Shown here piece after piece: positions 8,289-25,376 of a DNA stretch of 32,000 nucleotides; within the stretch, counting starts at the first letter, position 1, and every line of letters starts with the position of its first letter. The translations under genes and the position numbers were made by a program. This stretch comes from Candidatus Saccharimonadota bacterium (GTDB lineage Bacteria > Patescibacteriota > Microgenomatia > UBA1406 > GWC2-37-13): positions 120,001 to 152,000 of the forward strand of contig CP066689.1 of assembly GCA_016432445.1 (NCBI GenBank), written 5' to 3'. The notes under the pieces were generated by a model. That model was not told the DNA's origin. It did not search any database and saw only the letters and a list, made by a program, of their open reading frames with translations.

Positions 8289-8294
8289 ACTATC

Positions 8295-8346
8295 ATGGTA
8301 ACGAAAACTTTTTATATTGACAAGAGTTATTTATATTTGTTAGTCT
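8295..8346. promoter_or_regulatory. Bidirectional promoter sharing a TTGACAA core
   Basis: Plus strand: TTGACA (8317-8322), N18, TAGTCT (8341-8346), with AAAGGA/AGGG before the ATG at 8364. Minus strand: TTGTCA (8318-8323), N17, TACCAT (8295-8300), 6 nt before the ATG at 8288. Confidence 0.4.
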
Positions 8347-8363
8347 AAAGGATAGGGTTAGAT

Positions 8364-10217: not shown

Positions 10218-10269
10218 TTTAGTCAAGATTGTTGAATATAGTCCATAGATATCTTCAAAAAACTATCTT

Positions 10270-10275
10270 TATAAT
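10270..10275 (+). promoter_or_regulatory. Candidate -10 box (TATAAT) 5 nt upstream of the comM ATG
   Basis: A perfect TATAAT with no SD between it and the ATG at 10281. The -35 is weak. Confidence 0.3.
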
Positions 10276-10280
10276 GGCGT

Positions 10281-11810: not shown

Positions 11811-11816
11811 ATACTC

Positions 11817-11845
11817 TTGACAAAAATATTAAGGTGGAGTAATCT
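11817..11845 (+). promoter_or_regulatory. Candidate sigma-70 promoter TTGACA-N17-TAATCT
   Basis: The -10 ends 7 nt before the ATG at 11853. AAGGTGGAG in the spacer could alternatively act as an SD if transcription starts further upstream. Confidence 0.4.
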
Positions 11846-11852
11846 TTGAAAT

Positions 11853-12251
11853 ATGTTTCCTTATAAAAAAATAATAATTTTCTTGATTTTATTGTTTGTA
11901 AATATTTTTTTAGTGTCTAATGTTAATGCTCAAACAGATGTTAAAGTAAATTTACCTTTTCAAATTCCTACACTTGGTGACCTTTTGACTTTTATTATCC
12001 GTTTCTTTTTTGCTGTGGCCGGATTAGTTGCTCTGATATACCTTCTTTTGGGAGCTTTAGCCTGGATTACATCTGGCGGCAATAAAGAGAATGTTGATAA
12101 GGCCCGAGAAAAAATTCAAAATGCCATTATTGGCGTAATCCTTATTGTTTTAGTTTTAGCTATTATTTGGACACTAGAGCAAATAGTATTCGCTCAGAAA
12201 ATTTGTTTTGGAATCTCCTGTCCATTGAGTATGCCAACCTTATTAAAATAA
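11853..12251 (+). CDS. TrbC/VirB2-like (type IV secretion pilin-like) small membrane protein
   Basis: Signal peptide (VNAQTD), TM1, a short polar loop (TSGGNKENVDKAREKIQNA), TM2 and a Cys-containing tail. This is the architecture of VirB2-type pilins. Confidence 0.5.
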   Translation: MFPYKKIIIFLILLFVNIFLVSNVNAQTDVKVNLPFQIPTLGDLLTFIIRFFFAVAGLVALIYLLLGALAWITSGGNKENVDKAREKIQNAIIGVILIVLVLAIIWTLEQIVFAQKICFGISCPLSMPTLLK

Positions 12252-12267
12252 CTTTGAAAAATAAAAA

Positions 12268-12609
12268 ATGGTGGCTCTCCCGGTGTATGCACAAGTTAGA
12301 GAATGGGGATCATGCGTAGTTGACGGCGTACCTACTTTAAAATGTTTAGAAGTAATCTTTGGTAATATTCTTTTTTTATCATCAGCTCTTATTATCTTGG
12401 CTCTTTTTATTATGTTTCTTGTGGGGTCGTTTAGCTATCTGACTTCTTTTGGCAATCCGGAAAAGATCAAGAAAGCTCAAGGAACTTTAAAATATGCTAT
12501 TATAGGTTTAGTTTTATTTTTAAGTTCTTATCTTATTCTTAAAACTATTGATTTTATTTTCCTGGGAAATCAGAATCTGATTTTCAACTTCAGCCTTCCA
12601 GGTCCTTAA
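12268..12609 (+). CDS. Second TrbC/VirB2-like pilin paralogue
   Basis: Same TM1-loop-TM2 layout (LTSFGNPEKIKKAQGTLKYA) with a very short signal-like N-terminus (MVALPVYAQ). It is in tandem with the preceding gene. Confidence 0.45.
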   Translation: MVALPVYAQVREWGSCVVDGVPTLKCLEVIFGNILFLSSALIILALFIMFLVGSFSYLTSFGNPEKIKKAQGTLKYAIIGLVLFLSSYLILKTIDFIFLGNQNLIFNFSLPGP

Positions 12610-12612
12610 GTA

Positions 12613-12762
12613 TTATTTTGCTGGAGTGACAAAGATTACTTTGACGCCTTTTTCTTCAGGCACCGGTGAGATTATTCTTCCTTTATCCTGAATTAAGTTA
12701 TAGACAACAAAGATAAGAAGGGAGATCCCAATACTGATGAGGATATAGCCTACAAGTTTCAT
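12613..12762 (-). CDS. Unannotated 49-aa single-pass membrane protein, translationally coupled to the GT2 gene
   Basis: Hand translation gives MKLVGYILISIGISLLIFVVYNLIQDKGRIISPVPEEKGVKVIFVTPAK. Its ATG (12760-12762) overlaps the GT2 stop TGA (12759-12761) as ATGA. It falls below the ORF-track size cutoff. Confidence 0.4.
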   Translation of the reverse strand: MKLVGYILISIGISLLIFVVYNLIQDKGRIISPVPEEKGVKVIFVTPAK

Positions 12763-13688
12763 AGATTTACTTTTTCTTTAATAAGATACTGCGGCCTTTT
12801 TTGAATTTCTCTATATATTTTAGTGATATATTCTCCAATAATACCAATAGTAATGAGCTGTACTCCGCCTAAAAACATAATCCCGACAAATAAAGCTGTC
12901 CATCCGCTTACCCAGTAAGCAGGCAAAAATATTTTACCCAAAACAGCATAAATAATTCCTAAGAATCCAATTGAAGCGCTTAAGAAACCTGCAATTGAAG
13001 CTAAGCGCAAAGGTTTAGTTGAGAAAGAGGTCAATCCATCAAGAGCAAAGTTCACCATTTTAGATAAAGGGTAATGGGTACTGCCGGCATTTCTTTTATC
13101 TCTTTCAAAAGAGACATACTCTATGGGGTATCCGCCCCAAGCGACGAGACCTCGTAAAAACCGCGAATGTTCAGTTAAGCTGTTTAAAAACCTGACAACT
13201 TCTTTATCCAAAAGTCTGAAATCGCCAACTTCCTGAGGAATAGGAGTATCAGATAAAGTGTTAATAAATTGATAAAATATTTTGGCGGTCAACCTTTTGA
13301 ATAAATTGTCTCCCTGTCTTCGGTCCCGCCGGGCATAAACTATTTTAGCTCCTTTTTTCCATTTATCAATCATCTCAGGAATAATTTCTGGAGGGTCTTG
13401 AAGATCAGCATCTAAGCTTACTACGCAGTCGCCTTTAGCGAAGTTATAACCACAGCTTAAGGCGGCCTGGTGGCCAAAGTTGCGGTTAAAGGAAATAAGC
13501 TTTATTTTATTATTTTTTTTTGACTGAAGTTTAATTTCCTCAACTGTGTTGTCAAGGGATCCATCATTAACAAAGATTAATTCATAATTATACCGATCTA
13601 TTGAAGATACGATTCTGCCAATAAGAGGCAAAATATTCTCTTTTTCATTAAAAACAGGAATGACAATGGAGAGAAGAAAAGTATTCAT
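12759..13688 (-). CDS. GT2-family polyprenyl-phosphate glycosyltransferase (ArnC/GtrB/DPM1-like) with two C-terminal TM helices
   Basis: Motifs LSIVIPVFNE, VNDGSLDNT, DADLQDPPE and a C-terminal TM pair. The start is placed at MNTFLLSIV (13688) rather than the ORF-track start at 13733. Confidence 0.85.
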   Translation of the reverse strand: MNTFLLSIVIPVFNEKENILPLIGRIVSSIDRYNYELIFVNDGSLDNTVEEIKLQSKKNNKIKLISFNRNFGHQAALSCGYNFAKGDCVVSLDADLQDPPEIIPEMIDKWKKGAKIVYARRDRRQGDNLFKRLTAKIFYQFINTLSDTPIPQEVGDFRLLDKEVVRFLNSLTEHSRFLRGLVAWGGYPIEYVSFERDKRNAGSTHYPLSKMVNFALDGLTSFSTKPLRLASIAGFLSASIGFLGIIYAVLGKIFLPAYWVSGWTALFVGIMFLGGVQLITIGIIGEYITKIYREIQKRPQYLIKEKVNL

Positions 13689-13828
13689 GATAAATTTTAT
13701 TGGCAGATACAAGACTGCATCTGCCTTCGGCAAATTCTGCTTTAGATCGAAGACGGATGCAGTAATGTATCCGTCAAAGGCAAGTACAAGGCTATACCTG
13801 CCAATGCAAGGCGCAGAATTGTGCCTTG
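13689..13828 (-). other. Highly structured ~140-nt element between the tRNA-Met-like gene and the GT2 start (candidate cis-regulatory RNA, ncRNA or MITE-like insertion)
   Basis: Read on the minus strand, the helices are GACGGAT/ATCCGTC (7 bp), GGCAGAT/ATCTGCC (7 bp), GGCAGGTA/TACTTGCC (8 bp with one GU) and long-range AATTCTGC/GCAGAATT (8 bp). Competing pairings are CTGCATC/GATGCAG and TTGGCAGGTA/TATCTGCCAA. Confidence 0.3.
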
Positions 13829-13899
13829 TTACGGGGCCGGGAGTTGAACCACGGTCTAGAAGATTATGAGCCTTCTGTGCAACCGTACACTACCCCGTA
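13829..13899 (-). tRNA. tRNA-Met-like (anticodon CAT) with a defective T-stem; possibly a pseudogene or unusual tRNA
   Basis: Hand fold: acceptor TACGGGG/CCCCGTA (7 bp), TA, D-stem GTGT/GCAC with loop ACGGTT, anticodon stem GAAGG/TCTTC with loop CTCATAA, variable region TAGAC, and T-loop TTCAACT. The T-stem CGTGG/CCCGG has two mismatches. No CCA is encoded. Confidence 0.5.
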
Positions 13900-13929
13900 A
13901 AATATGTGCTAATTATATTAGAAAAACCT

Positions 13930-14277
13930 CTATAAGTCAATTTTGAAAAATGTGTTCCACCACTGGGCGTAGACTGGTATAGGAGTGGGAGTTATCATAA
14001 CTGGAGTGGGTGTAGGATTGGGTAAGACGATAGCTACTTCATTAGATTTTAAAAGATTCAATTTGTTTCTTATAATCTTTTCTATTTGGTTGGGATCATT
14101 GCTTTTAAGAATTTGGGTTTTAAGAGAAGTGTTTTGTTTTAAAGCTTTCTCATAGTCATTCTTATAATCCTCATAAAAAGAGTAATTTTTTTTGTACTCA
14201 AAAAAATTTTTGATAAGTGAGGTGAGCAAGAACAAAAAAAGTAAAAAAACCAAGATTTGCTTAAAAAGTTTCATCAA
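13930..14277 (-). CDS. Septum formation initiator (FtsB/DivIC family) protein
   Basis: N-terminal TM helix, then a coiled coil, then DPNQIEKIIRNKLNLLKSNEVAIVL, the typical DivIC C-terminal motif. Confidence 0.7.
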   Translation of the reverse strand: MMKLFKQILVFLLFLFLLTSLIKNFFEYKKNYSFYEDYKNDYEKALKQNTSLKTQILKSNDPNQIEKIIRNKLNLLKSNEVAIVLPNPTPTPVMITPTPIPVYAQWWNTFFKIDL

Positions 14278-14300
14278 AAAAAGTATACCAGAACAGTAAG

Positions 14301-14747
14301 TCAGATCTTAGATCTTAGATCTTTGAGGGTTTTCATAATCCGGGAGGGGTCAGCTTTGTTTTTGAGCTCCCGCATGACAATGCCAATTATTGCTTTTGGA
14401 TCACGATTGTAAACATCTTGATTAACATTGATGACTTTTTCAATTTCTTGTTTTAAAGCTTCTTCAGATATCTCCTCAGGCAGATAAGATGAGATAATTT
14501 TTTTTTGTTCTTCAGACTGGCGGGCTAAATCTTCGCGTGCGCCTTTTTTAAAAGCATCAATAGACTCTTGAAGTTCTTTGTTTTGTTTGCGAAGAAGTGA
14601 GATAACCTCCTCATCATTTAACTCACTTTTTTTGTCAATCTCTTTGTTTATAATTTGTGCTAAAATATAACGAAGGGTTTCAAGAACAGTTTTATTGCCT
14701 GATTTAAGTGCAGCTAATTGATCATTTTGCAGTTTTTGTCTTAACAT
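14301..14747 (-). CDS. GatB/YqeY domain protein
   Basis: MLRQKLQNDQLAALKSGNKTVLETLRYILAQI... matches the YqeY family throughout. The start is set at the ATG at 14745-14747 rather than the hydrophobic upstream extension. Confidence 0.85.
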   Translation of the reverse strand: MLRQKLQNDQLAALKSGNKTVLETLRYILAQIINKEIDKKSELNDEEVISLLRKQNKELQESIDAFKKGAREDLARQSEEQKKIISSYLPEEISEEALKQEIEKVINVNQDVYNRDPKAIIGIVMRELKNKADPSRIMKTLKDLRSKI

Positions 14748-14763
14748 TTCATTATTATAGTCT

Positions 14764-15162
14764 ATGAAAAAAAATAATGGCAATGACATCATTGAAATGA
14801 TGACTCATTTTCAAAAGAAAATCCTTGAACAAAAACCTTCACTAGACAAAATGTTTGAAGAGATCAGAATGATGAAGTTTAAGATCCGGCCTTTAAACGG
14901 GGATATTTCTTTACTTGATCTCAAAAACAATCATTTTATTGAGATATTATGGAGTTTAGGTAAGCTTGATGAGTTTTTTCAGTTCCAGTATAAAAAAGTA
15001 TCAGTACACAAGCGATCCTTATTCATTAAATTATTTGATGAAATGCATGATAAATTTCAGGAAGATTTAAATAATCTTAATCTTAAGCCTGAAAAATTAC
15101 CAAGCACAACTTCAGCCTTTGAGATGGAAATTTTTAAAGAAAGAACTCAGCAAAGCAACTAA
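14764..15162 (+). CDS. Hypothetical protein (132 aa)
   Basis: An intact ORF in an otherwise unoccupied interval. I recognise no motif. Confidence 0.4.
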   Translation: MKKNNGNDIIEMMTHFQKKILEQKPSLDKMFEEIRMMKFKIRPLNGDISLLDLKNNHFIEILWSLGKLDEFFQFQYKKVSVHKRSLFIKLFDEMHDKFQEDLNNLNLKPEKLPSTTSAFEMEIFKERTQQSN

Positions 15163-15170
15163 AACTTCTT

Positions 15171-15752
15171 ATGAAAAAATTCCCCATTGTACTTGATCTG
15201 GAGACAAAATATACCTTTAGAGAGTTTGATGATCCGCAAAAACTTGAAGTCTCTGTCGCGGCCATCTATGATTACCAGGATCATCAGGGCAAAATATATT
15301 TTGAAAAAGACCTAAACAAACTTTTTCCTCTTCTGGAGAGCGCGTCTTATATTATTGGTTATAATGTCCGGAGTTTTGATCTGGCAGTTTTACAGCATTA
15401 TTATCCGGGGAAAGTCGATCATTTTTCCTGTTTTGATATTTTGGATGATATTAAAGAAAAGCTGGGTAGGCGTTTGTCATTAAATGATGTAATATCAGCC
15501 ACTTTAGGTAAGAAAAAATCCGGTCATGGACTGATGGCGATTGATTATTATAAGGAGGGGAAGTTTGAGAAATTAAAAAAATATTGTTTGGATGATGTCA
15601 TTTTAACTAAAGAACTTTTTGATTATGGAGTTAAAACCGGAGAAATCTTTTATTTTACTTCTAAAGGAAAAGGAACAATAAAAGTCAGCTGGAAAAAATA
15701 TATTGAAGAGGATGGAGAAAATGGTAATATGCCCCTAACCCTGCCTTTTTAG
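15171..15752 (+). CDS. RNase H-fold DEDD-type 3'-5' exonuclease-like protein
   Basis: Motifs VLDLETK (Exo I), GYNVRSFDLAVL (Exo II) and YCLDDVILTKELF (Exo III-like). Confidence 0.6.
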   Translation: MKKFPIVLDLETKYTFREFDDPQKLEVSVAAIYDYQDHQGKIYFEKDLNKLFPLLESASYIIGYNVRSFDLAVLQHYYPGKVDHFSCFDILDDIKEKLGRRLSLNDVISATLGKKKSGHGLMAIDYYKEGKFEKLKKYCLDDVILTKELFDYGVKTGEIFYFTSKGKGTIKVSWKKYIEEDGENGNMPLTLPF

Positions 15753-15831
15753 ACGATAGGATTCTCCATGAAAAAGAATAAATTTTTTGATAAAATATAG
15801 ACTGTCAGTTTAAGCACTTTTAAATTTTATT

Positions 15832-15904
15832 TCCCCTGTAGCTCAACGGTACCGCGCCCGCCATCGCAAGCATGAGCTTGCTCAGGCGTTGCGGGCGGGG
15901 AGCA
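15832..15904 (+). other. tRNA-sized chimera: exact 5' 20 nt and 3' 8 nt of tRNA-Asn flanking a GC-rich extended hairpin
   Basis: 15832-15851 is identical to 16162-16181 (TCCCCTGTAGCTCAACGGTA). 15897-15904 (GGGGAGCA) is identical to 16228-16235. The core 15852-15900 folds as CCGCGCCCGC/GCGGGCGGGG (9 of 10 bp) enclosing GCAAGC-ATGA-GCTTGC. No anticodon or T arm can be drawn. Confidence 0.6.
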
Positions 15905-15922
15905 AAAAGCTATAATAAAACT

Positions 15923-16159
15923 ATGTTTTACACATATGTTTTAAAAAGCTATAAAGATAATAAATTATATATAGGTTTTAGTGACAATTTAAAGCAAAGA
16001 ATAGAAGACCATAATAATGGTAAAGTTTCCTCAACTAAAGATAGACGGCCATTAAAACTTATATATTATGAAGCTTGTTTATCTAAATTAAAGGCTCTTA
16101 AGAGAGAAAAATATTTCAAGACAGGATTTGGTAGACAGTATCTTAAAAATAGAATTTAA
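15923..16159 (+). CDS. Small GIY-YIG nuclease family protein (UPF0213/URI-like)
   Basis: FYTYVLKSYKDNKLYIGFSDNLKQRIEDHNNG...YFKTGFGRQYLK contains the GIY...YIG motifs, a conserved Arg, and the Glu in YYE. The start is placed at the ATG at 15923, 6 nt after a TATAAT (15911-15916). The ORF-track N-terminal extension runs through the GC hairpin. Confidence 0.85.
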   Translation: MFYTYVLKSYKDNKLYIGFSDNLKQRIEDHNNGKVSSTKDRRPLKLIYYEACLSKLKALKREKYFKTGFGRQYLKNRI

Positions 16160-16161
16160 CA

Positions 16162-16233
16162 TCCCCTGTAGCTCAACGGTAGAGCAGGTCGCTGTTAACG
16201 ACAAGGTTCGTGGTTCGAATCCACGCGGGGGAG
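16162..16233 (+). tRNA. tRNA-Asn (anticodon GTT)
   Basis: Cloverleaf: acceptor TCCCCTG/CGGGGGA, D-arm GCTC-AACGGTA-GAGC, anticodon arm GGTCG-CTGTTAA-CGACA (27:43 G-A mismatch), variable region AGGTT, and T-arm CGTGG-TTCGAAT-CCACG. The discriminator is G and no CCA is encoded. Confidence 0.9.
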
Positions 16234-17742
16234 CATTGTTGAATTTTTAGGTTGATTTGCGATTATAAAATACGGTTTCTTCCAGTCCCATCGGGCTTTT
16301 CCGTCCTTCCACTCTAAGTTCTCACAAAAGATATCAACCATTTCCCTTTTGTTTTCTGGTAAGGCCAGTCTTAGTCTTTTGGTGACGTGCTTTATGTTAT
16401 CTAGGAACTGGTACATAAGCTCGTCTAGTTCGCTAACGATATTCTCACATTTAATAATCGTATTTCGATAAGACGCTTCCTTTCGACGACTGTCTTCCAT
16501 AAGCCGGTTATAATCAGCCTTCATAAGCTCACCCCCTGAAAAGCGTCGACCCATATCGATTTGAAGATTTTGTTCGGTTGAAATCTTTTCGCCAAACTCC
16601 CGAACTTGTTTTTTAATATCTAGTTTTTGTGGTTGGTTTATCTCCACTACATAATCACGCGCTTCTTTCCAAGTATCCTGGTCTATTTCAATTCGTTCAA
16701 AAGCGGTCATTAAACTATCTTCAAGTTGTTTTTCAGGGATATAGGTGATTCGGGCAATATCTTTACAAGGGGACCGTCGTTTTCCACACCGATAATAGGT
16801 AATACCTTTTTTGTGCGTTCCTGAAAGCATTCCACCACACAGACCGCACTTAAACATACCTGAATATGCGTAATCTAGGTGGGTTGTTTTTGGGTGTTCG
16901 TGATCGGTGATAATTTCTTGTACGCGATAAAATAATGGGGTGTCAATTAAAGGTACATATTCGCCCGCAATCCTTTCTCCGTCGCTTTCGAAGATTCCTG
17001 TGTACTGAACGTCACTTAATCTGTTTCGCCAAGTGTTCTTATGAAATCCACCTGATACTGACTTACCAGACAGTAATCCGATATTTTTAGCATATTCGGC
17101 GATTTGTTCGAATGTGTAGTTACCGGTAGCAAACTGTTCGAAAACCATTTTAACTAACGGTCCTCGTACAGGATCGACAATCCACTTCTTACGACCCACG
17201 GGTCCTTCGGTAATATAACCTAGAATTGCCGGTCTTGCCGGGTGCTTCATTATCTTTGCTTTTGATTTCATACCCTCTATGGTCCTGTATCCGGTATCGT
17301 CGCTTGATTTTTTGGACATAGCAAATTCGATAGCTACCATTAGCTGATCCCCGGACGAATCAGTAAAGACTTTTGTGGGCGTATAAATTCGTTTGATTAT
17401 TCCGTTTTGTAAATACCACAGAATCATTCCACCGTCGGCAAAATTACGCGCAAGACGACTAATTTCGGTACAAACAATCCCGTCGATTTCGCCTTTATGG
17501 TCTTTAAGGTAATCGAGCATATTGGCAAAACTATCGCGTGCGAAAGCTTCATAACCGGTTTTATCGTCTTCAAAAATAGGACCAACTAATTCAAGTTTGT
17601 ATCTTGCTATAGCGTCTTTAACGAAGGTCTTTTGATATTCTAATGAATTTAATTGTTTACTCGCTTCACCTTTAAGATTGTCTTCCGAAGACTTCCGGAT
17701 ATAGGCGACCACGCGATTATATTTTGGTGGGTTATCTTCCAT
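16195..17742 (-). CDS. Large serine recombinase (resolvase catalytic domain, recombinase domain, zinc ribbon, coiled coil)
   Basis: VVAYIRKSSED carries the catalytic Ser and ICTEISRLARN is also present. The zinc ribbon is CGLCGGMLSG...YYRCGKRRSPC, followed by a long helical C-terminus. The start is set at MEDNPPKYN (17742). The last 13 codons (MLPRVDSNHEPCR) are antisense to the tRNA-Asn 3' half. Confidence 0.9.
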   Translation of the reverse strand: MEDNPPKYNRVVAYIRKSSEDNLKGEASKQLNSLEYQKTFVKDAIARYKLELVGPIFEDDKTGYEAFARDSFANMLDYLKDHKGEIDGIVCTEISRLARNFADGGMILWYLQNGIIKRIYTPTKVFTDSSGDQLMVAIEFAMSKKSSDDTGYRTIEGMKSKAKIMKHPARPAILGYITEGPVGRKKWIVDPVRGPLVKMVFEQFATGNYTFEQIAEYAKNIGLLSGKSVSGGFHKNTWRNRLSDVQYTGIFESDGERIAGEYVPLIDTPLFYRVQEIITDHEHPKTTHLDYAYSGMFKCGLCGGMLSGTHKKGITYYRCGKRRSPCKDIARITYIPEKQLEDSLMTAFERIEIDQDTWKEARDYVVEINQPQKLDIKKQVREFGEKISTEQNLQIDMGRRFSGGELMKADYNRLMEDSRRKEASYRNTIIKCENIVSELDELMYQFLDNIKHVTKRLRLALPENKREMVDIFCENLEWKDGKARWDWKKPYFIIANQPKNSTMLPRVDSNHEPCR

Positions 17743-18031
17743 ATTTATCTTTGGTGACGGCTTTATTAAGCTTGTCGAACGTTTCACTAAACGATTGTGG
17801 ACCCTTGCCTTTAGTAATTACCTTTCTAAATTCTTCGAGATCTGTCGTAATAATTCTTTGTTTGTTTTTTATTGTTATTTGGGCTTGTGGTTCGGTGTAT
17901 ATTCTTTGGACGACTTTAACAAATCGCTTAAAGCTACTTAATAGGGGTGGAATATCCTTATCGCCCAATTTAGGATCGCGTTTTAACAAGTGCGATATAA
18001 AATTCTTTTGTGCTTTACTTGTATTTTCCAT
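17732..18031 (-). CDS. Hypothetical basic protein (99 aa)
   Basis: It is co-directional and tightly spaced with its neighbours, with a 5-nt gap upstream and an 11-nt overlap with the recombinase start. It is preferred over the overlapping plus-strand ORF. Confidence 0.45.
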   Translation of the reverse strand: MENTSKAQKNFISHLLKRDPKLGDKDIPPLLSSFKRFVKVVQRIYTEPQAQITIKNKQRIITTDLEEFRKVITKGKGPQSFSETFDKLNKAVTKDKYGR

Positions 18032-18036
18032 ATTTA

Positions 18037-18567
18037 TCAGTTAACTAGTGCCGGTCGACTGTTTATTTCAAATAATCTGTCTATTTCCTGAATAAGTTCT
18101 GGCGGTAAAGTCACTTCTTGCTTGGGTACTTGTATATTGGCTGAACTAACGGTATTAGGTAGCCCTAGCGCGGTTCTTTCGCCTTCTATGGCTGTCTTTA
18201 GTATTCCGGCTAGAAAAGTTAATTCCTTGACGTCCCAAGACCTGTAACCATTTTCAGTAAAAGATTGATCTAACTTATTTAATAAGTTACTTGCCAGATC
18301 TTGAATCGTTCGCCACGTTTTAATATGTCTGGCAATCGTTTGATTTATTAGTTCGACCCGATTTTCGACAAATGTTTCTTCGGCCAAATCGTATAGGTTT
18401 CGTCTACGTTGAAGCCAGTTTTCGTTCTTGGCGCGAAGGCCTACTTCACTTTTGCTAACACCGAATTTATCGGCTACGTCTTGATACGAAGGAATCCTAC
18501 CTTCCGGATCGGGGGTTAAATAAAATTCTAGGGCCGATTCCCAATTTATTCCTTTTGGTCCGTCCAT
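18037..18567 (-). CDS. HTH-containing protein, terminase-small-subunit-like or DNA-binding accessory protein
   Basis: IPSYQDVADKFGVSKSEVGLRAKNENW is an HTH-like segment near the N-terminus and the rest looks helical. The assignment is weak. Confidence 0.45.
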   Translation of the reverse strand: MDGPKGINWESALEFYLTPDPEGRIPSYQDVADKFGVSKSEVGLRAKNENWLQRRRNLYDLAEETFVENRVELINQTIARHIKTWRTIQDLASNLLNKLDQSFTENGYRSWDVKELTFLAGILKTAIEGERTALGLPNTVSSANIQVPKQEVTLPPELIQEIDRLFEINSRPALVN

Positions 18568-18579
18568 AGTTTCTTAAAA

Positions 18580-19305
18580 TCATTTGTTAGCTTGGATAGG
18601 ATTACCCAAAACTGCTACGCCAACACCTTCGTTAGCATAAGCACACCCCACGCTAAAATCACCCAATAATGACAATCTATGGCCCGGTGAACCAGACCAA
18701 AAATCTATAGCGTCTTTGGTTGTGTATGTGTCTTTGATATAGAGTTCAGCGATAGGTGCGAATTTCTTATCTATTTCTTCATTTTTAACCCATTCTTCAA
18801 ATCCCTCGTGTCCTACGTCACCACTTTTAACTTTTAGGTATCTAGCGACAAGGTTATCGCAGATATAAGGATCGAGCTTTAATTCTAATTTTCCGTTTGC
18901 TAGCCGATATTCGTTCATTGAATCAAAAAGTTGTTGGCCTGTGTAATTAGCCTTTTTGTAACCAGAGTTAGCATTTCTATATCCAATTAAAAATACTAAC
19001 CCAATAAGTCCGAGTAAAACGACCGAAAAAACAGCTTTTTTTGTAGATAGACCCAATGGCGGTTTATATTCAGACTTATCCTTTTTTATTAAAATAACGA
19101 GCCAAGTTAATACCATTAACCCGAATGAAATAGCACCGATACCGATAGTAGATAACATTGGAAATAGCCACGGGGTTTCGGGTCCACCTGAAAAATTGGG
19201 ATCGTGTGTCATTCCCTTAGTGGTATAAACGATAATAAAGGCAAAAAATAAACAAGCCAAAGCCCACAAAATTGCTGTTATGTTGTTAATTTTTTTCAAT
19301 TTCAT
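18580..19305 (-). CDS. Membrane-anchored CAP/SCP (PR-1/YkwD-like) domain protein
   Basis: Three to four N-terminal TM helices are followed by NEYRLANGKLELKLDPYICDNLVARY...GHEGF...FWSGSPGHRLSLLGDFSVGCAY, matching the CAP-domain motif series. Confidence 0.65.
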   Translation of the reverse strand: MKLKKINNITAILWALACLFFAFIIVYTTKGMTHDPNFSGGPETPWLFPMLSTIGIGAISFGLMVLTWLVILIKKDKSEYKPPLGLSTKKAVFSVVLLGLIGLVFLIGYRNANSGYKKANYTGQQLFDSMNEYRLANGKLELKLDPYICDNLVARYLKVKSGDVGHEGFEEWVKNEEIDKKFAPIAELYIKDTYTTKDAIDFWSGSPGHRLSLLGDFSVGCAYANEGVGVAVLGNPIQANK

Positions 19306-19331
19306 AATCTACACTTTTATTTTACATTAAA

Positions 19332-21419
19332 TTAAGAAATCTTATTTGGCGCTGTTTTTCCTGTCGATATGCTGATTTGGTAAGCCCCAATCCTAAGTAA
19401 GATACAAAAAATCCAGTGACCGTAATTTAATAGATAATTTTCCCGAAACATTAAGGCGTGGGATACATTATTTCGAAGATTATATCCACCTAGCTCGATA
19501 AGAACATATTTCATAAGGATTAGTAAGTCGTTTCCGAATATCTCCCCGGCGTAAGGTTCTCTTAAAAGTTCGTCGAGTCCTTTTTTTTCGGTTACTTGTT
19601 TGCCACCACGTTCAGTTTTGATCTTATCGACCGGCTTACCAATCGTTTCGTAAAACTCCCGGATTAAGCCTTCAATCTTGGGGGTTAAAGAATCGATAGC
19701 CAGAACAAGATTGGTTCTAGCTTCCTCGACATTGTTATTCTTAATCATTTCTAAAGTAGTAAGATATGCTCGAATACCGGGCCGCAAAATATCTATCCAT
19801 TTTCTTGATTTCAAAAGAACTTCTTTAGTGTCCGAATCGTGTAGCTCGTATTCTTTCCCATACCACAAATGATCGGACATATACTTAATTACCGATTCTA
19901 AATCTAGTTTACCCGCGTCAATTAGTTCCTCGAATAAGACTTTTACCATAGCTTCGTAAGTTATTAAGGAAAACTGATATTGACGTAGTAGGGAATAGTA
20001 TTTCTTTTCAAGTTCACTATCGTATTTTCGCGGCATATTCCCTGAACTATCAAATACGCTGTGGGAAAACAAGGATTGTAGCGGAAATTCTTTATCCATT
20101 TTTTCTGCCTGCTTTTTCACTTCTTCGTATTTTGGAAGGATTGAACCGTCCACGGTCAGCCTAACTAAAAGTTGTTCTTTGCTTTCTTTAGCGATTAAAG
20201 CCTTAAACTGTTCTCTAATTTGTTTCACCCAGTCTGTAAGATCCATTGTTTGACTGAATGTTTGGAATTTTAGATTCTTTTTGGATTCTTGAAGCGTCTT
20301 TTCGAGTTCTTCTACTTTTTTTTGATTACCCAGTGTTTTATATTCAGTAATAGCCTTGATAAGAAGATCCGATTGAACGAAGCCGTCTTTTTTTGCGTTA
20401 GCTTCGTCTTCAAACGAAGAAGCAATCTTTTGACGCCAGTTTTTTCCTTGAAGCCCAAAAACAAGCCGTTCGATTTTCTCGCCCAGTGATAAAAAGTCCC
20501 TAGCAAAATAGAGGTTATTCTTTTTTTCTTGTTCGTCGGCCATTCTTTTACAAATCTTCACCGTGTTTTCCCAGAAATCCTTTCCATATTCTTTCCAGTT
20601 TTCTAAGGCGAACTCGATAAGACGGTGTGTAACAGCCCACCGGGATTCACTTTGATTATCAAAGTTCAAAATCGTGTTAGCGATTGATTGATTTACTTCG
20701 TTTATATTGTGTTTTATCTTCTTGGCAAGAATGTAGGCACTTCTTAGAGCGTTTACTATTTCAAAAGCGGAAGTTCCTTCCGGGTCTTTCTTAACTTCGA
20801 TATGTAACCAATCGACAACCTTTAAGTATTCCGTTATAGCTGTCTGGGCCATTTTATGATCCTTTTCGGTGATCCATAAAAAGTGTGCGATCCGTGACTT
20901 TATTCTTGGGTGCTTATATTTCGGAAGTAGTGATCTGATATAAGTGAAGTCGGATTTTGAAAAATCTTCTAAGTTCGGGAAGGCCCAATACTTGCCATTT
21001 TCGTCCGTCCCCGACATTTTGGATTTGAATTCGTCGTCTTTTACTTGAAAGCTGAAAAGGTTAATAAGCGCTTGAAATCTATCCCTTTCCCTCTCGTCGT
21101 CGAGAATAAAATAAGACAAATCTCTTGCTTCCCGGAAATGATCGCCCATTGTGAATTCATATTTAGCGTCTTCTGCGATACTATCTAAAGAAGCTAAGCT
21201 ATCGTCGATTTTCTTTCTAGCTACTTCTTTGTCGTCTGTTCCAAGCCTAACCATATCCTTAAACCGTTTTAATTTTTCAAGGTCGTATCGCCGATCACCT
21301 CGATCGTTGATTTTTTCGGCTTGAAGTTTTTTAGTCCTATCCCACCGACGAAGGGTTTCGGGGTGAATTCCCAAAAATTCTGCCGCTTGCGTTACTGAAT
21401 AATATGTTTTTTTAGCCAT
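19332..21419 (-). CDS. 695-aa protein: N-terminal MerR/excisionase-type HTH plus a large helical region ending in a HEPN-like R-x4-H motif (DUF4209/Abi-like)
   Basis: The N-terminus is YYSVTQAAEFLGIHPETLRRWDR...RYDLEKLKRF. The C-terminus is LIELGGYNLRNNVSHALMF, with R649 and H654 encoded at 19458-19475. Confidence 0.6.
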   Translation of the reverse strand: MAKKTYYSVTQAAEFLGIHPETLRRWDRTKKLQAEKINDRGDRRYDLEKLKRFKDMVRLGTDDKEVARKKIDDSLASLDSIAEDAKYEFTMGDHFREARDLSYFILDDERERDRFQALINLFSFQVKDDEFKSKMSGTDENGKYWAFPNLEDFSKSDFTYIRSLLPKYKHPRIKSRIAHFLWITEKDHKMAQTAITEYLKVVDWLHIEVKKDPEGTSAFEIVNALRSAYILAKKIKHNINEVNQSIANTILNFDNQSESRWAVTHRLIEFALENWKEYGKDFWENTVKICKRMADEQEKKNNLYFARDFLSLGEKIERLVFGLQGKNWRQKIASSFEDEANAKKDGFVQSDLLIKAITEYKTLGNQKKVEELEKTLQESKKNLKFQTFSQTMDLTDWVKQIREQFKALIAKESKEQLLVRLTVDGSILPKYEEVKKQAEKMDKEFPLQSLFSHSVFDSSGNMPRKYDSELEKKYYSLLRQYQFSLITYEAMVKVLFEELIDAGKLDLESVIKYMSDHLWYGKEYELHDSDTKEVLLKSRKWIDILRPGIRAYLTTLEMIKNNNVEEARTNLVLAIDSLTPKIEGLIREFYETIGKPVDKIKTERGGKQVTEKKGLDELLREPYAGEIFGNDLLILMKYVLIELGGYNLRNNVSHALMFRENYLLNYGHWIFCILLRIGAYQISISTGKTAPNKIS

Positions 21420-21422
21420 ATG

Positions 21423-21465
21423 ACTTATACTATCTACTTATACAGTATATGGTATAATAAATCAA
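21423..21465. promoter_or_regulatory. Overlapping divergent promoters with repeated ACTTATAC boxes and a TATACAGTATA palindrome
   Basis: Plus strand: extended -10 TGGTATAAT (21450-21458). Minus strand: TTGATT (21460-21465), N17, TATAAG (21437-21442). ACTTATAC occurs at 21423-21430 and 21436-21443, and the palindrome at 21439-21449. Confidence 0.4.
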
Positions 21466-21490
21466 GTCGCGTTTTCGACGGGGTATCAAT

Positions 21491-22060
21491 ATGTCATACG
21501 ATCTTAACGTTTCAAAATTAACAAAGTTCAAAGGGAAAACCATATTCCTTTTTGATTCGAGCACGTTTTGTAGATATGAAGAACTGTCTTTGTATTCAGG
21601 AATTGACTTCTTTGAAGTAGTAGGAAAGCTAGATAGGATCGTTTTTCTACTAACAAACGAAGTAATCGTAGAACTAATGAACGGTCCTAGAAAATTTCAC
21701 CCCAAGTTTTTACTAGATCACATAATCAATGTCGACGGTTCAATGGACCATTCCCTGAAAGAAAATAGATTTTTATATGAAAAAGAAGGAAAACTACACT
21801 ATTTGGTATTAAACAAAGTTTCTGCCGTCGATTGGAATCAAGTTCTATTATGTCAAAATCATTCAGATCTTGTACTGGTAACGAACGATAGAAAACTATT
21901 GAAAAGTTCGAAGGTCATTTTAGGCGATCGATCGTTTGGGGCGGCTTCATTGATTTATAAACTACTTGAAATGTATCCGGATAACACCGAACTTCAATCT
22001 TTGGAAATAAAATCAAAAGAACTTTTTAAGCACGAAAAACTAGGTAGTATAAGGTACTAG
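21491..22060 (+). CDS. PIN-domain (predicted RNase) protein
   Basis: The four acidic positions occur in canonical order and context: IFLFDSS (D22), TNEVIVEL, SAVDWNQVLL and LVLVTNDRKLL. Confidence 0.65.
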   Translation: MSYDLNVSKLTKFKGKTIFLFDSSTFCRYEELSLYSGIDFFEVVGKLDRIVFLLTNEVIVELMNGPRKFHPKFLLDHIINVDGSMDHSLKENRFLYEKEGKLHYLVLNKVSAVDWNQVLLCQNHSDLVLVTNDRKLLKSSKVILGDRSFGAASLIYKLLEMYPDNTELQSLEIKSKELFKHEKLGSIRY

Positions 22061-22345
22061 TACAAGTCTGCTACTGTATTATCAAGCGTTTAAGGCTAAA
22101 GAATTACCCTTAAAACATTCGTTTACGAATCTTATGTCTACCTCGTCGGGTAGAATAGGGGTTAGGATTTGGTCTATAAAATAAGTTCTCACCCGTTTCA
22201 ATAGGGCGAGCCAGATAGGACGCTGAGCGTATAAATGCCCAGTTTGTCCCGCGATATCAGACTTTTCTTTAGGTTCGAATAATCTGTAAACAAGCCCCCG
22301 CTAAAAGACAAGTGCTGAACCTCTCTTGAGTGTATTTAATTTCTC

Positions 22346-22393
22346 TTGACAACTAACATTGAAGGATTTATTATTTGAATAATCGTTCAAATA
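22346..22393 (+). promoter_or_regulatory. mer-operon promoter TTGACA-N17-TATTAT with an overlapping 8-6-8 inverted-repeat operator
   Basis: TTGACA at 22346-22351 and TATTAT at 22369-22374. The perfect inverted repeat TATTTGAA-taatcg-TTCAAATA at 22372-22393 ends 2 nt before the ATG at 22396, a typical position and shape for an ArsR/SmtB operator. Confidence 0.55.
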
Positions 22394-22395
22394 CT

Positions 22396-22701
22396 ATGGC
22401 AGAGTATCAACAGATAAAAAAGGAATTAAAGAATAAACAGAAACTCTTAGCTTGCGCAAGGCAGTTTGGGGTGGTAGGTGATGCTACCAGGCTTAAAATT
22501 TGTTACCTTCTATGTCATTATCCCGAAGTTTCTGTTGGTCAAATGGCAGAAATCCTGGATACTTCTATTTCTGTTGTTTCCCATAGCGTAAAAAAGCTTT
22601 TAGAACTTGAGCTTGTGACAAGGAGAAAAGAAGCACAAACTGTGTACTATTCTTTGACAACTAATGATTTTACTAAGACGCTTAAAAATTTTATCACATA
22701 A
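22396..22701 (+). CDS. ArsR/SmtB-family metal-responsive transcriptional repressor
   Basis: DATRLKICYLLCHYPEVSVGQMAEILDTSISVVSHSVKKLLELELVTRR is a winged HTH with Cys residues in the alpha3 region. The ATG at 22396 is preferred over the TTG at 22375, which lies inside the -10/operator. Confidence 0.85.
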   Translation: MAEYQQIKKELKNKQKLLACARQFGVVGDATRLKICYLLCHYPEVSVGQMAEILDTSISVVSHSVKKLLELELVTRRKEAQTVYYSLTTNDFTKTLKNFIT

Positions 22702-22703
22702 CT

Positions 22704-23339
22704 ATGAGGAAAGAAGAACAACAAAAACAAATTTCTAATTCAGCACTTAAATGGAGTGCGCTCTCGGCGCTTATCGCCTCTTTGTGTTGTATTGGGCCAT
22801 TAGTATTGGTTCTCTTTGGCATAGGCGGAGCCTCAACAGCATTAGCCATTGGCTACCGTAAGCCGTACTTTCTGCTTTTTGGCTTAGCAGTGCTTATTAT
22901 TGGATTAGTTTTCATCTATCGCAAAAGTTGTAGTACTACAAAATTAAGTAGGAAACAGCAAGTATTCATCTTCGGAGGTTCGTTTCTGGTTGCGGCATTA
23001 TTATATTACTTTTTGACCTATGTGGGAGTGCCGGCAGTTACCCCGCTGGTATATCAGTCCAGCAGCGCTTCAAACATATTAGCCTCCTTTTCAAATAACA
23101 GACCCAATAAAGCAACACTCAAAATAGAGGGAATGTCGTGTGCCTCATGTGCAGTAAGTGCACAATATAGCTTAAAAAGCCTTCCCGGTGTTGCTGACGC
23201 TTATATTGGCCTTACGAAAAACCTTGATGGTGAAGGTTGGATAGTCTATGAACCTGATCAGGTGACTAAAGAACAAATTATTAAGGCGATTGAACCATAT
23301 AAAGCAACGTTTACATCTGATAGCGTGTACACTCAATAA
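22704..23339 (+). CDS. Mercury transporter-like membrane protein (vicinal Cys in TM1) fused to a C-terminal heavy-metal-associated (MerP-like) domain
   Basis: LIASLCCIGPLVLVLFGIGG is a MerT/MerF-type CC motif, and three to four TM helices follow. The HMA domain is LKIEGMSCASCAVSAQYSLKSLPGV. Confidence 0.7.
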   Translation: MRKEEQQKQISNSALKWSALSALIASLCCIGPLVLVLFGIGGASTALAIGYRKPYFLLFGLAVLIIGLVFIYRKSCSTTKLSRKQQVFIFGGSFLVAALLYYFLTYVGVPAVTPLVYQSSSASNILASFSNNRPNKATLKIEGMSCASCAVSAQYSLKSLPGVADAYIGLTKNLDGEGWIVYEPDQVTKEQIIKAIEPYKATFTSDSVYTQ

Positions 23340-23353
23340 AGACGCAAAACATT

Positions 23354-23599
23354 ATGACTAAATTAACTATTGTTCATATTAAAGATTGCACATGCTGTGA
23401 AAGCGTAATCAAAATATCAAAGGAATTGGAGAAAGAAATGGATATTGAATTAAAACTGCAGAATTGGGATGAGTCTAAAGATTTGATTGAGAAAAACAAA
23501 ATTGTCTCTTCGCCGGCGATCTTTATCAATGATGAGTTCGTTCACGCCGGAGAGCTTAGTAAAGAGGAGTTAAAAGATTTAATTAAAAAACATGAATAA
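23354..23599 (+). CDS. Small thioredoxin-fold protein (Thioredoxin_3/glutaredoxin-like) with a CTCC motif
   Basis: LTIVHIKDCTCCESV...SSPAIFINDEFVHAGELSKEELKDLI has the layout of redox-active disulfide protein 2-type minimal thioredoxins. Confidence 0.55.
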   Translation: MTKLTIVHIKDCTCCESVIKISKELEKEMDIELKLQNWDESKDLIEKNKIVSSPAIFINDEFVHAGELSKEELKDLIKKHE

Positions 23600-23939
23600 A
23601 ACTCAAATTCAAATTTTATATTTCCCAGATTGCCCAATCTATAAAGAGCTTGAGAAACTTGTAAGAGAGGTTATCCGAGAACTTAGCATTAATGCGGACT
23701 TGGAATTAATCAATATTCAAACAAAAGAGGATGCCGAGAAGTATCACTTTACCGGTTCGCCCGGACTCCGCATTAACGGAAAAGACATTGACCCCCTGAC
23801 AGAAAATGCGCAGGTGGTTCTTAAGAGCTGCAAGATTTATCGCACTGAGGAAGGTATGAAAATGATTCCTACAAAAAAGATGATTCGAGAAGCTCTGAAG
23901 AAAGAGGAAATGGAAGGAAAAGAGTGTTGTAAAATATAA
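23592..23939 (+). CDS. Small thioredoxin-fold-like protein with a single CP motif and a C-terminal vicinal Cys pair (ECCKI)
   Basis: ILYFPDCPIYKEL...GSPGLRINGKDI is Trx-like, with a further Cys in LKSCKIY and a C-terminal CC. It overlaps the previous gene by 8 nt. Confidence 0.45.
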   Translation: MNKTQIQILYFPDCPIYKELEKLVREVIRELSINADLELINIQTKEDAEKYHFTGSPGLRINGKDIDPLTENAQVVLKSCKIYRTEEGMKMIPTKKMIREALKKEEMEGKECCKI

Positions 23940-23942
23940 AGT

Positions 23943-25376
23943 ATGGAAGAGTATGACTTGATCATTATAGGTGGTGGGGCAGGAGCGTTTGCTGCGGCTA
24001 TTAAGGCTAATGAGTTGGGGGCTAAAACCTTAATGGTAAATTATGGCCTGCCTTTGGGTGGTACTTGCGTGAATGTCGGTTGTATTCCATCTAAAAACTT
24101 ACTTAAAGCTGGCGAAGTGCTGTATTACAGCCAGCATCATAATTTCAGTGGTATCAAACTAAGGGTTGATGAATTTGATTTTGGCAAAACCGTTCAAGAG
24201 GAACTGGATGTGGTGGCGATGATGAGAAAGGAAAAATATGAGGACGTCTTAAAGAATTTGCAAAACGTTACTTTTATTGAAGGTAGAGCAAAGTTTACCT
24301 CACCCACAGAAATTGAAGTAAACAACCCCTCCTTCGCCGAGGCTCCAGCGGGCAAGCAAAAATATCAAGGTAAGAAGTTTGTTATTGCTACCGGTTCAAC
24401 TGCTAATGTTCCTCCTGTAGAAGGCCTTAAAGAAGCGGGGTACTTAACTCATATTGAGGCTTTAGCCGGAAAGATTCAGCCGAAATCTTTAATCATCATA
24501 GGAGCCGGGCCATTAGGGCTTGAGTTTGCCCAAATGTTTCATCATTTTGGAACTAAAGTTATAGTTTTACAAAGAGGTAATACTATTCTTCCAAGAGTTG
24601 AACCGGAAATTGCTTCAGCCTTACAAAAGTACTTATCCGATGAAGGAATTGAACTTTATACAGAAGCTGAAACACTGTCGGTTCGTAAAGTCGGTTTAGA
24701 AAAGATAGTTAAGGCTAAGATAAACGGAGTTGAACAGGAGTTTAGAGCAGAGGAGATACTTTTAGCGTCAGGCAAGACCGCTAATACTAAAGATTTAAAC
24801 TTACAGGTAGCGGGAGTAGGGATTGACGAGAGACAAGCTATCAAAGTCAATGAGTCCCAAAAGACCTCCCAAGACCATATTTTTGCTGTTGGGGATGTAA
24901 CAAACCAAAAGCTAAGGCTTGAGACAATAGCTGGTAGAGAAGGAACTTTAGCCGCCAAAAATGTCTTTACCGGCAGTCGCGACAGTATCAACTACCGGCA
25001 GGTTCCCTACGCTGTCTTTACTTATCCGGCCGTGGCAAGTATAGGGATGACTGATGCGGAAGTTATTGAAAGCGGCGGCAGGTGTAGTTGCAAAACTATT
25101 GACTTTTCCAAAGTTCCCAAGGCAGGTGCCATCAAAGATACCAGAGGAGTTATTAAAATGGTGATAAATAACGAAAATAGAAAAATTTTAGGTATCCATA
25201 TGGTAGCGCCGGAGGCAGCAGATATTATCAACCAGGGAATTTACATCTTAAAAGGAGGCATGACAGTTGATGATGTGATAGACAGTTTGCCTGTCTTTCC
25301 AACCCTTTCAGAAAGCATAAAAATCGCCGCTTTGTCATTTACTACTGATATCAATAAACTTAGCTGTTGTGTGTAA
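23943..25376 (+). CDS. merA: Mercuric reductase, core enzyme without the NmerA domain
   Basis: FAD motif IIIGGGAGAFAAA, redox-active GGTCVNVGCIPSK, NADPH motif IIGAGPLGLEFA, and the MerA-diagnostic C-terminal vicinal cysteines (KLSCCV-stop). Confidence 0.9.
   Translation: MEEYDLIIIGGGAGAFAAAIKANELGAKTLMVNYGLPLGGTCVNVGCIPSKNLLKAGEVLYYSQHHNFSGIKLRVDEFDFGKTVQEELDVVAMMRKEKYEDVLKNLQNVTFIEGRAKFTSPTEIEVNNPSFAEAPAGKQKYQGKKFVIATGSTANVPPVEGLKEAGYLTHIEALAGKIQPKSLIIIGAGPLGLEFAQMFHHFGTKVIVLQRGNTILPRVEPEIASALQKYLSDEGIELYTEAETLSVRKVGLEKIVKAKINGVEQEFRAEEILLASGKTANTKDLNLQVAGVGIDERQAIKVNESQKTSQDHIFAVGDVTNQKLRLETIAGREGTLAAKNVFTGSRDSINYRQVPYAVFTYPAVASIGMTDAEVIESGGRCSCKTIDFSKVPKAGAIKDTRGVIKMVINNENRKILGIHMVAPEAADIINQGIYILKGGMTVDDVIDSLPVFPTLSESIKIAALSFTTDINKLSCCV

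Follow-up and report, generated by a model that had tools for sequence, protein, structure and literature searches.

A helix-turn-helix-fused DUF4209 protein and a PIN-like protein, probably independent passengers of a tRNA-linked island in a Candidatus Roizmanbacteria genome

The locus described here lies on the 1.10-Mb contig CP066689.1 (assembly GCA_016432445.1), within a stretch of 32,000 nt, positions 120,001 to 152,000, that is referred to below as the window. It consists of two divergent open reading frames (ORFs) separated by a gap of 71 bp and carried by an island of ~6 kb in a metagenome-assembled genome (MAG) of Candidatus Roizmanbacteria. The longer ORF encodes a 695-aa protein with an N-terminal helix-turn-helix (HTH) and a C-terminal DUF4209 domain of predicted HEPN type, and the shorter one a 189-aa protein with PIN-like features; behind the former, on the same strand, follow three small genes (p241, p176 and p99) and a large serine recombinase, the 3′ end of which reaches into a tRNA-Asn gene (Table 1). 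A preliminary description of this DNA reported both ORFs and their spacing exactly as they are, the peptides it quoted are all present, and its placement of the R649 and H654 codons is confirmed. It also proposed that the pair is a two-nuclease defence module. The reading favoured here, at a probability of roughly 60%, is that the HTH-fused HEPN protein is cargo and the PIN-like protein a solitary nuclease, the two being independent passengers of the island and no two-component system. Adjacency on a mobile island had been taken for a system, and the large protein is already catalogued.

The evidence that carries this reading comes from the distribution of the two genes. A set of 165 loci that encode relatives of the 695-aa protein, drawn from metagenomes and species-representative genomes, was searched with the 189-aa family. 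Adjacency of the 189-aa gene was confined to copies of this island with identities of 99% or more, namely L008, L016 and two fragments, L009 and L010. It is absent beside the other close relatives, which have 68-91% identity (L017-L033 and L094-L096), and beside all of the distant ones, about 120 in number. The sister islands have in common the segment 16162-18572, with tRNA-Asn, recombinase, p99 and p176, and the terminus at 22052-22218 (blastn), and on this shared frame each of the two genes can be found without the other. In L001-L006 the recombinase/p99/p176 backbone is accompanied by the 189-aa gene (93% amino acid identity) and no DUF4209 gene, the cargo consisting of proteins of 292, 75, 160 and 165 aa, an SDR and a 58-aa protein; conversely, the 189-aa gene is missing from L017 and L018, where backbone, 695-aa gene and right terminus are all in place (blastn). 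L184, which belongs to this island lineage as well, was fetched separately through a look-up of a relative of the 189-aa protein. It keeps the gene order of the window. Between L184 and the window the identity amounts to 99% for the 695-aa protein and for p241; the corresponding values are 90% for the 189-aa protein, 88% for p176, 80% for p99 and 93% for the recombinase. The near-identical tract begins within p176, at about 18317, and reaches about 21620, some 40 codons into the 189-aa gene, and these mosaic breakpoints indicate that the HEPN cassette was exchanged by homologous recombination, with p176 and the 189-aa gene serving as flanks. Across these islands the 189-aa gene behaves as backbone, or as the right flank of a slot, and the 695-aa gene behaves as cargo.

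The module proposed earlier would join the HTH-HEPN and PIN proteins in one divergent two-nuclease unit, of defence or toxin-antitoxin type, with a shared operator. The genes are certainly adjacent and divergent across 71 bp, the pair is held in all copies of the island lineage (L008, L016 and L184), and at one further locus, L180, a relative of the 189-aa gene is followed by a weakly Abi_2-like HEPN ORF. Such a module is nevertheless very improbable: outside the lineage no relative of the 189-aa gene was found beside any of the 695-aa relatives, 15 of them close and about 120 distant, each gene stands alone in sister islands that share the backbone, their histories in L184 are discordant (99% versus 90% identity), and PDC-S39, the catalogued family that the 695-aa protein matches (see below), was defined as a single-gene candidate. 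In the 165-locus scan the genes were together only in near-identical island copies. The preliminary description had itself named a lack of the pair in other genomes as a finding against the module, and with this the idea of a two-gene module loses most of its ground.

The intergenic region bears on the same question, as the preliminary description had seen in it overlapping promoters shared by both genes, with repeated boxes through which the HTH would autoregulate. The direct repeat ACTTATAC does occur twice (21423-21430 and 21436-21443), and the same two stretches, on the minus strand, are the GTATAAGT boxes of the 695-aa promoter. Thirteen homologues keep a -35-like TTGACA (TTGATT in the window), the 17-nt spacer, TATAAG and the two GTATAAGT boxes, whatever gene lies beyond. 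Homology that moves with the 695-aa gene ends at 21444-21465, and homology that moves with the 189-aa gene begins at 21484, 7 bp before its ATG (blastn). Given these limits, and conservation regardless of the upstream neighbour, the boxes belong to the HEPN gene alone; the boxes of the earlier account are thus real and conserved, but the promoters are not shared, since promoter and boxes move with the 695-aa gene only. A putative -10 of the 189-aa gene, TGGTATAAT (21450-21458), is situated 7 nt from the boxes, and co-regulation is possible in this particular island, as a two-nuclease module would have it; the element is placed in the non-conserved spacer, however, and can be regarded as an accident of juxtaposition. 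Judged from the sequence, it is plausible that the GTATAAGT boxes are the operator of the HTH and that the 695-aa gene is autoregulated. A classical MerR operator is a palindrome inside an over-long promoter spacer of 19-20 bp, whereas here the spacer is 17 nt and two direct repeats cover the -10 and the start site; only the HTH domain is common to both, and the 695-aa protein therefore does not qualify as a classical MerR regulator. No recognisable Shine-Dalgarno sequence precedes the 695-aa gene, and its conserved -10-like element is only ~18 nt from the ATG (21417-21443), which points to an mRNA that has a very short leader or is nearly leaderless.

The domain architecture of the 695-aa protein could be assigned over much of its length. 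At the N-terminus, the MerR/excisionase-type HTH recognized earlier is supported by MerR_1 (aa 7-59, 33.8 bits against a cut-off of 21.6), HTH_17 (29.7 against 27) and the Pfam MerR model (29.0 against 28.2), and it also matches the excisionase-type models HTH_17 and TIGR01764. The fusion is limited to a close clade of 23 proteins and was found in none of about 120 distant relatives (phmmer, aa 1-66 against the family); the latter are proteins of roughly 590 aa, mainly from Bacteroidota, that consist of DUF7380 and DUF4209. When a profile of close and distant members together (alignment A5) was used for a homologue search, only the close set was among the matches listed. The approximately 550 aa between the two ends, previously said to match nothing, include DUF7380 at aa 107-243 (Pfam, E 9e-15, above the cut-off), and the rest of the middle models as an alpha-helical solenoid. 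A possible second HEPN motif within DUF7380, R172-x6-H179, was considered and rejected, as R172 is not conserved in the distant relatives, the consensus of which in this region is NPxLKARYNH, i.e., R-x2-H.

The C-terminal assignment to HEPN, likewise made in the preliminary description, where DUF4209 was named, is supported by profile matching and conservation. DUF4209 (PF13910, since renamed EMARD_N) covers aa 582-671 at 35.5 bits against a cut-off of 22.3 and is present in 30 of 30 close clusters; no Pfam match to Abi_2 or DUF3644 was obtained. The R-x4-6-H motif alone proves nothing, since three bare copies are observed in the protein and about 2.1 would be expected by chance. Variation of the R/H pair among homologues had been named as a finding that would speak against the module, and in alignment A1, for which 21 homologues of 51-87% identity were assembled without using the motif for retrieval, R649, N650 and H654 are invariant. 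They are invariant also in A5, distant relatives included, where the distant loci were partly retrieved by the motif pattern and conservation is biased to that extent. Two acidic residues, D576 and E583, are equally invariant, in A1 and in the wider alignments, and are located in predicted helix-2. In the AlphaFold (AF2) model (predicted local distance difference test, pLDDT, 79.7; predicted template modelling score, pTM, 0.54), both lie in a long helix, 564-592, that is followed by an insert with a beta-hairpin; helix-3 (630-648) ends exactly at the R-x4-H motif, and a last helix spans 664-677. As modelled, this order of helices fits the published HEPN layout, in which the motif ends helix-3, an insert separates helices 2 and 3, and helix-2 contributes an acidic residue (PMC3710099).

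Contrary to the earlier statement that no named system could be matched, the 695-aa protein matches the candidate PDC-S39 of PADLOC (PDLC05011, E 6.5e-50; PDLC05012, 2.7e-38). The PDC set comprises 145 candidates, all untested, that were detected through "guilt-by-embedding" in BREX, DISARM and type I restriction-modification (R-M) loci, and PDC-S39 was defined among them as a single-gene candidate (Payne et al., bioRxiv 10.1101/2024.01.29.577857); a search of the supplements of that paper for PDC-S39 and DUF4209 found no occurrence. The DUF7380 plus DUF4209 architecture of the roughly 590-aa Bacteroidota relatives is shared by the 695-aa protein, and so are the lack of a conserved partner gene and surroundings in which R-M and further defence genes are frequent. 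Differences from PDC-S39 are the additional MerR/excisionase-type HTH at the N-terminus, ~100 aa in length, the conserved promoter with its direct-repeat boxes, and the location in a serine-recombinase island of a Candidate Phyla Radiation (CPR) bacterium rather than within BREX, DISARM or type I R-M.

In 2013 DUF4209, under the name C6orf70 (ERMARD), was added to the HEPN superfamily; the family was predicted to be catalytically active, with fusions to TPR noted and with bacterial members described as 'occurs in R-M related operons' (Anantharaman et al., PMC3710099). The 695-aa protein resembles this family in its conserved R-N-x3-H and acidic helix-2 residue, and its helical repeats upstream of the HEPN domain parallel the 'fused to TPR' arrangement. 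The eukaryotic C6orf70/ERMARD prototype is a membrane protein of the endoplasmic reticulum with a transmembrane segment; the 695-aa protein differs in having no such segment and in carrying a DNA-binding head. No member of the family with demonstrated RNase activity was found in the literature searched. A further likeness is to Abi2/AbiD/AbiF and HEC-08, which are also large proteins with one terminal HEPN domain, an R-x4-6-H motif and a mobile or defence-island context, although the 695-aa protein belongs to another HEPN family. Mutating the motif histidine of HEC-08, a DUF3644 HEPN protein, abolishes defence, and by analogy this may serve as a model for the mechanism proposed below.

The neighbours of the 695-aa relatives vary. 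At 15 close loci, upstream genes encode Abi_alpha/PDC-S47, a weak match to DUF4145, DUF4238 and SEC-C proteins, and downstream genes an RrnaAD methyltransferase, APH, glyoxalase and PD-(D/E)XK proteins, with a recombinase of the same family downstream in 8 of the 15. Among 43 distant loci no neighbour family is found in more than two, and type I, II and IIG R-M, GajA, IetA and Old are all represented. As neighbours differ across both sets, the 695-aa gene stands alone, without an obligatory partner. Some of the genes beside the HEPN gene in sister islands, namely an Erm/KsgA-type rRNA adenine dimethylase (L020, 3805-4704), an APH-family phosphotransferase (L026, 8108-9088) and a glyoxalase/bleomycin-resistance protein (L023, 6035-6484), are resistance-like cargo on mobile islands of CPR bacteria.

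The 189-aa protein probably has a PIN-like fold, and it is probably a solitary Mg-dependent nuclease. Its four acidic residues, which had been pointed out before, follow the canonical PIN order and context (DSS, EL, S..D, VTND), with codons at 21554-21556 (D22), 21671-21673 (E61), 21830-21832 (D114) and 21887-21889 (D133); in an alignment of 59 sequences D133 is invariant and the other three are at least 90% conserved. The family profile reaches the protein P0097 (E 2.3e-7), for which Pfam PIN_4 in turn gives 27.3 bits, above its cut-off of 21.9, and other members match PIN, PIN_8 or PIN_9 under the cut-off. The AF2 model (pLDDT 80, pTM 0.77) returned PIN proteins for all nine of the top-ranked Foldseek matches in the PDB (Utp24/Fcf1, HARP, VapC11, PAE2754 and Utp23), so that the structure prediction and fold search proposed earlier gave PIN matches, weak ones, for this protein, and for the 695-aa protein only generic helical-repeat matches, uninformative as to a HEPN fold. 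The best structural counterparts are thus VapC, Fcf1/Utp24 and HARP, from which the 189-aa model differs by a beta-hairpin insertion (aa 84-107, partly of low confidence) and a C-terminal helical extension. It differs from VapBC systems in that no VapB-type antitoxin gene precedes it: the upstream gene in the window is the divergent 695-aa gene, and the genes upstream of its relatives are unrelated. Members of the family are rare: 7 clusters were counted in a set of 5.8 billion sequences and 65 representatives in one of 1.84 billion. No match came from viral contigs, phage records or plasmid records, and the 189-aa protein has none in Pfam, PADLOC, NCBIfam or PHROGs. Distant relatives are encoded beside SLFN_AlbA_2 and weakly SIR2-like genes (L007), beside unrelated genes (L181-L183), or, in L180 (73% identical), beside SNase and the weakly Abi_2-like ORF. 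The latter, a partial ORF, carries an EIRNNIAH motif, and its match to Abi_2 (E 8.8e-4) is under the cut-off. This second and independent adjacency of PIN-like and HEPN genes may be coincidence in a defence neighbourhood.

A function in processing could also be considered for the 189-aa protein, either as a nuclease of the island, acting in excision or replication, or as an RNA-processing enzyme working on tRNA 5′ ends in the manner of HARP, and not as a toxin or defence effector. HARP, a protein-only RNase P, is the solved structure that the family profile matches best (E 0.012), with weak alignment to it and to VapC across DSS, EL, S..D and VTND, and the HARP entry 8kd9 ranks fourth in Foldseek, but the profile similarity is under significance. 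The gene co-evolves with the backbone, occupies an identical terminal position with two cargo types, and has no adjacent antitoxin-like gene in the window; set against this, L017 and L018 lack it and retain backbone and terminus, so that it must be dispensable for the island, and distant relatives lie outside such islands among defence-like neighbours (L007, L180). On balance this role is quite unlikely, and the 189-aa protein is better described as an orphan PIN-like family at the edge of the cargo slot, evolving with the backbone.

The ends of the island were placed by comparison with sister islands and not by att repeats (attachment sites). On the right, homology stops at 22211-22218 in three independent comparisons (blastn). 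No long att direct repeats were found around the island, the sole repeat being a 20-nt duplicate of the start of the tRNA, its 5′ end; this is not in conflict with an island of this type, because serine recombinases require almost no att identity. On opposite strands, the last ~13 codons of the recombinase and the 3′ half of tRNA-Asn share the stretch 16195-16234, from which it appears that part of the tRNA gene is supplied by the island or harbours it. The mobile island headed by a large serine recombinase, as first described, is borne out by the recombinase domains and by sister-island homology. Among the smaller genes, p176 has an HTH resembling those of phage small-terminase and DNA-binding proteins (PHROGs). 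The p241 gene is found together with the 695-aa gene in four islands (window, L008, L027 and L184) and is missing in L017-L020 (tblastn, ORF maps); in L027, p241 is 87% identical to that of the window and the HEPN protein only 72%.

Table 1. Features of the island and its surroundings (positions are those of the window).
Feature	Position	Strand	Remarks
Island	about 16162-22218		serine-recombinase type, beside tRNA-Asn
tRNA-Asn(GTT)	16162-16234	+	left end of island; sister-island homology starts here (ARAGORN, blastn)
Large serine recombinase	16195-17787	-	Resolvase, Recombinase and Zn_ribbon_recom domains (Pfam)
p99	17732-18031	-	backbone gene; conserved with recombinase in sister islands (tblastn)
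p176	18037-18567	-	backbone gene; conserved with recombinase in sister islands (tblastn)
p241	18580-19305	-	predicted membrane protein; marginal CAP/SCP match, 21.2 bits against cut-off of 21.1 (Pfam)
695-aa ORF	19332-21419	-	QQG44420.1 (NCBI, exact record), labelled "DUF4209 domain-containing protein"
Predicted HEPN four-helix domain (aa 540-677)	19389-19802	-	from secondary structure of model and invariant columns
R649-N-N-V-S-H654 codons	19458-19475	-	R-x4-H HEPN motif; invariant in A1 and A5
MerR/excisionase-type HTH (aa 6-59)	21243-21404	-	MerR_1 3.6e-8, HTH_17 8e-7 (Pfam)
Promoter region of 695-aa gene	21420-21465	-	conserved in 13 relatives
-35-like TTGATT; -10-like TATAAG	21460-21465; 21437-21442	-	695-aa promoter; 17-nt spacer
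Two direct GTATAAGT boxes	21436-21443; 21423-21430	-	putative HTH operator; second box 3 nt before ATG
189-aa ORF	21491-22060	+	QQG44421.1 (NCBI), annotated hypothetical protein
Right terminus of island	22052-22218		conserved in sister islands, whether or not the 189-aa gene is present (blastn)
ArsR-type regulator	22375-22701		mercury-resistance-like cluster
MerT-HMA fusion	22704-23339		mercury-resistance-like cluster; MerT match slightly under cut-off
Two small CxxC-containing ORFs	23354-23939		mercury-resistance-like cluster
477-aa ORF	23943-25376		looks like a MerA-type flavoprotein disulfide reductase, judged by sequence appearance

The arrangement of the minus strand suggests another role for the 695-aa protein, in the service of the island itself, with the HTH repressing the leftward operon and controlling excision or integration, and the HEPN domain acting as a stabilising addiction toxin. 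The genes run co-directionally from the 695-aa gene through p241, p176 and p99 to the recombinase, with gaps of 26, 12 and 5 bp and then an overlap of 56 bp, and no terminator-like site was found on this strand between the first and the last of them. The excisionase-type matches of the HTH (HTH_17, TIGR01764) and the same-family recombinase downstream of 8 of 15 close relatives point in the same direction. However, L001-L006 keep recombinase, p99 and p176 and lack any 695-aa gene, so the backbone does not need it; relatives such as P0030 (L011-L015, L033) occur in chromosomal contexts with no recombinase nearby, and the distant members have no HTH and lie among R-M and defence genes. A role of this kind is considered unlikely.

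Some features next to the island deserve mention. On the left, the 20-nt exact copy of the tRNA-Asn 5′ end (15832-15851) lies 330 bp from the real tRNA and is followed by a GC-rich hairpin and a small ORF of GIY-YIG type (15872-16159). The sister loci L002 and L003 have, in the corresponding place, a GIY-YIG gene with 52% identity to this ORF; copy and ORF may have been left behind by an earlier integration or may form a homing-type element directed at the tRNA. Directly to the right, and outside the island as homology defines it, is a mercury-resistance-like cluster (22375-25376), the MerA-like ORF of which is unrelated to the other 477-aa ORF of the window (624-2057). In L184, the DNA directly past the right terminus (5902-15880) specifies a second serine recombinase, the type I R-M proteins HsdM and HsdS and an OLD-like AAA_15/TOPRIM ATPase. 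Tandem stacking of islands here may produce a defence hotspot.

Taken on its own, the 695-aa protein is best read, as far as its sequence allows, as an HTH-fused variant of PDC-S39, a catalogued and untested candidate, and as a probably autoregulated HEPN RNase of abortive-infection type. In the mechanism considered most likely, the HTH would bind the two GTATAAGT repeats over its own -10 and start site and so hold expression low, and the alpha-solenoid middle would act as sensor or scaffold. Phage infection or some other trigger would then lead two HEPN domains to pair, form a composite R-x4-H active site and, by analogy with abortive-infection systems, cleave cellular or phage RNA and arrest growth. 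The 189-aa gene probably borrows its promoter, in the window island, from the spacer upstream of the HEPN gene.

Several observations weigh against independent passengers with these activities. The RNase activity and anti-phage function of the 695-aa protein are inferred, and the literature searched gave no functional study of PDC-S39, DUF7380 or bacterial DUF4209. A fold search with the full-length model found only generic helical repeats (solenoid, TPR, HEAT) and so gave no confirmation of the HEPN fold, the loop with the R-x4-H motif is modelled at a pLDDT below 50, and a profile of the C-terminal part alone (A7) found no solved HEPN structure among PDB sequences, where the profile of the full family matched nothing but a designed helical repeat protein. 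For the 189-aa protein, the window sequence itself matches no PIN model, the structural matches are weak (best E 4.7e-3, none reaching 1e-3 in Foldseek), and an hhalign comparison of the family with one VapC-like PIN_3 protein was negative. Both genes also stay together within the island lineage (window, L008, L016 and L184), by which a local functional interaction is possible, and in L180 (2388-3430) the weak Abi_2-type HEPN ORF begins 2 nt after the 189-aa relative. Finally, as the 695-aa gene heads a tight co-directional run that ends in the recombinase, it could serve the island itself.

A long shot, and the least probable of the ideas considered, is that the 695-aa protein, at the head of the recombinase operon and with its excisionase-like HTH, couples phage sensing to island mobility. 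When a phage infects, the repressor-nuclease would leave its operator, which would at once free the HEPN RNase and de-repress the recombinase, and the PIN-like nuclease would be switched on from the operator region as a second effector. If this were true, the island would escape from a doomed cell, and a defence gene would double as a mobility switch in ultra-small CPR bacteria.

To our knowledge, little has been established about immunity and mobile elements in CPR bacteria (Patescibacteria). The locus reveals a compact family of tRNA-linked serine-recombinase islands with a cargo slot that is refilled by homologous recombination. Defence-like genes (DUF4209 HEPN, Abi_alpha/PDC-S47, DUF4238) as well as resistance-like ones are among its cargo. 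Because it comes with a conserved and easily testable putative operator, the HTH-fused variant of PDC-S39 offers a convenient entry to an uncharacterised HEPN candidate.

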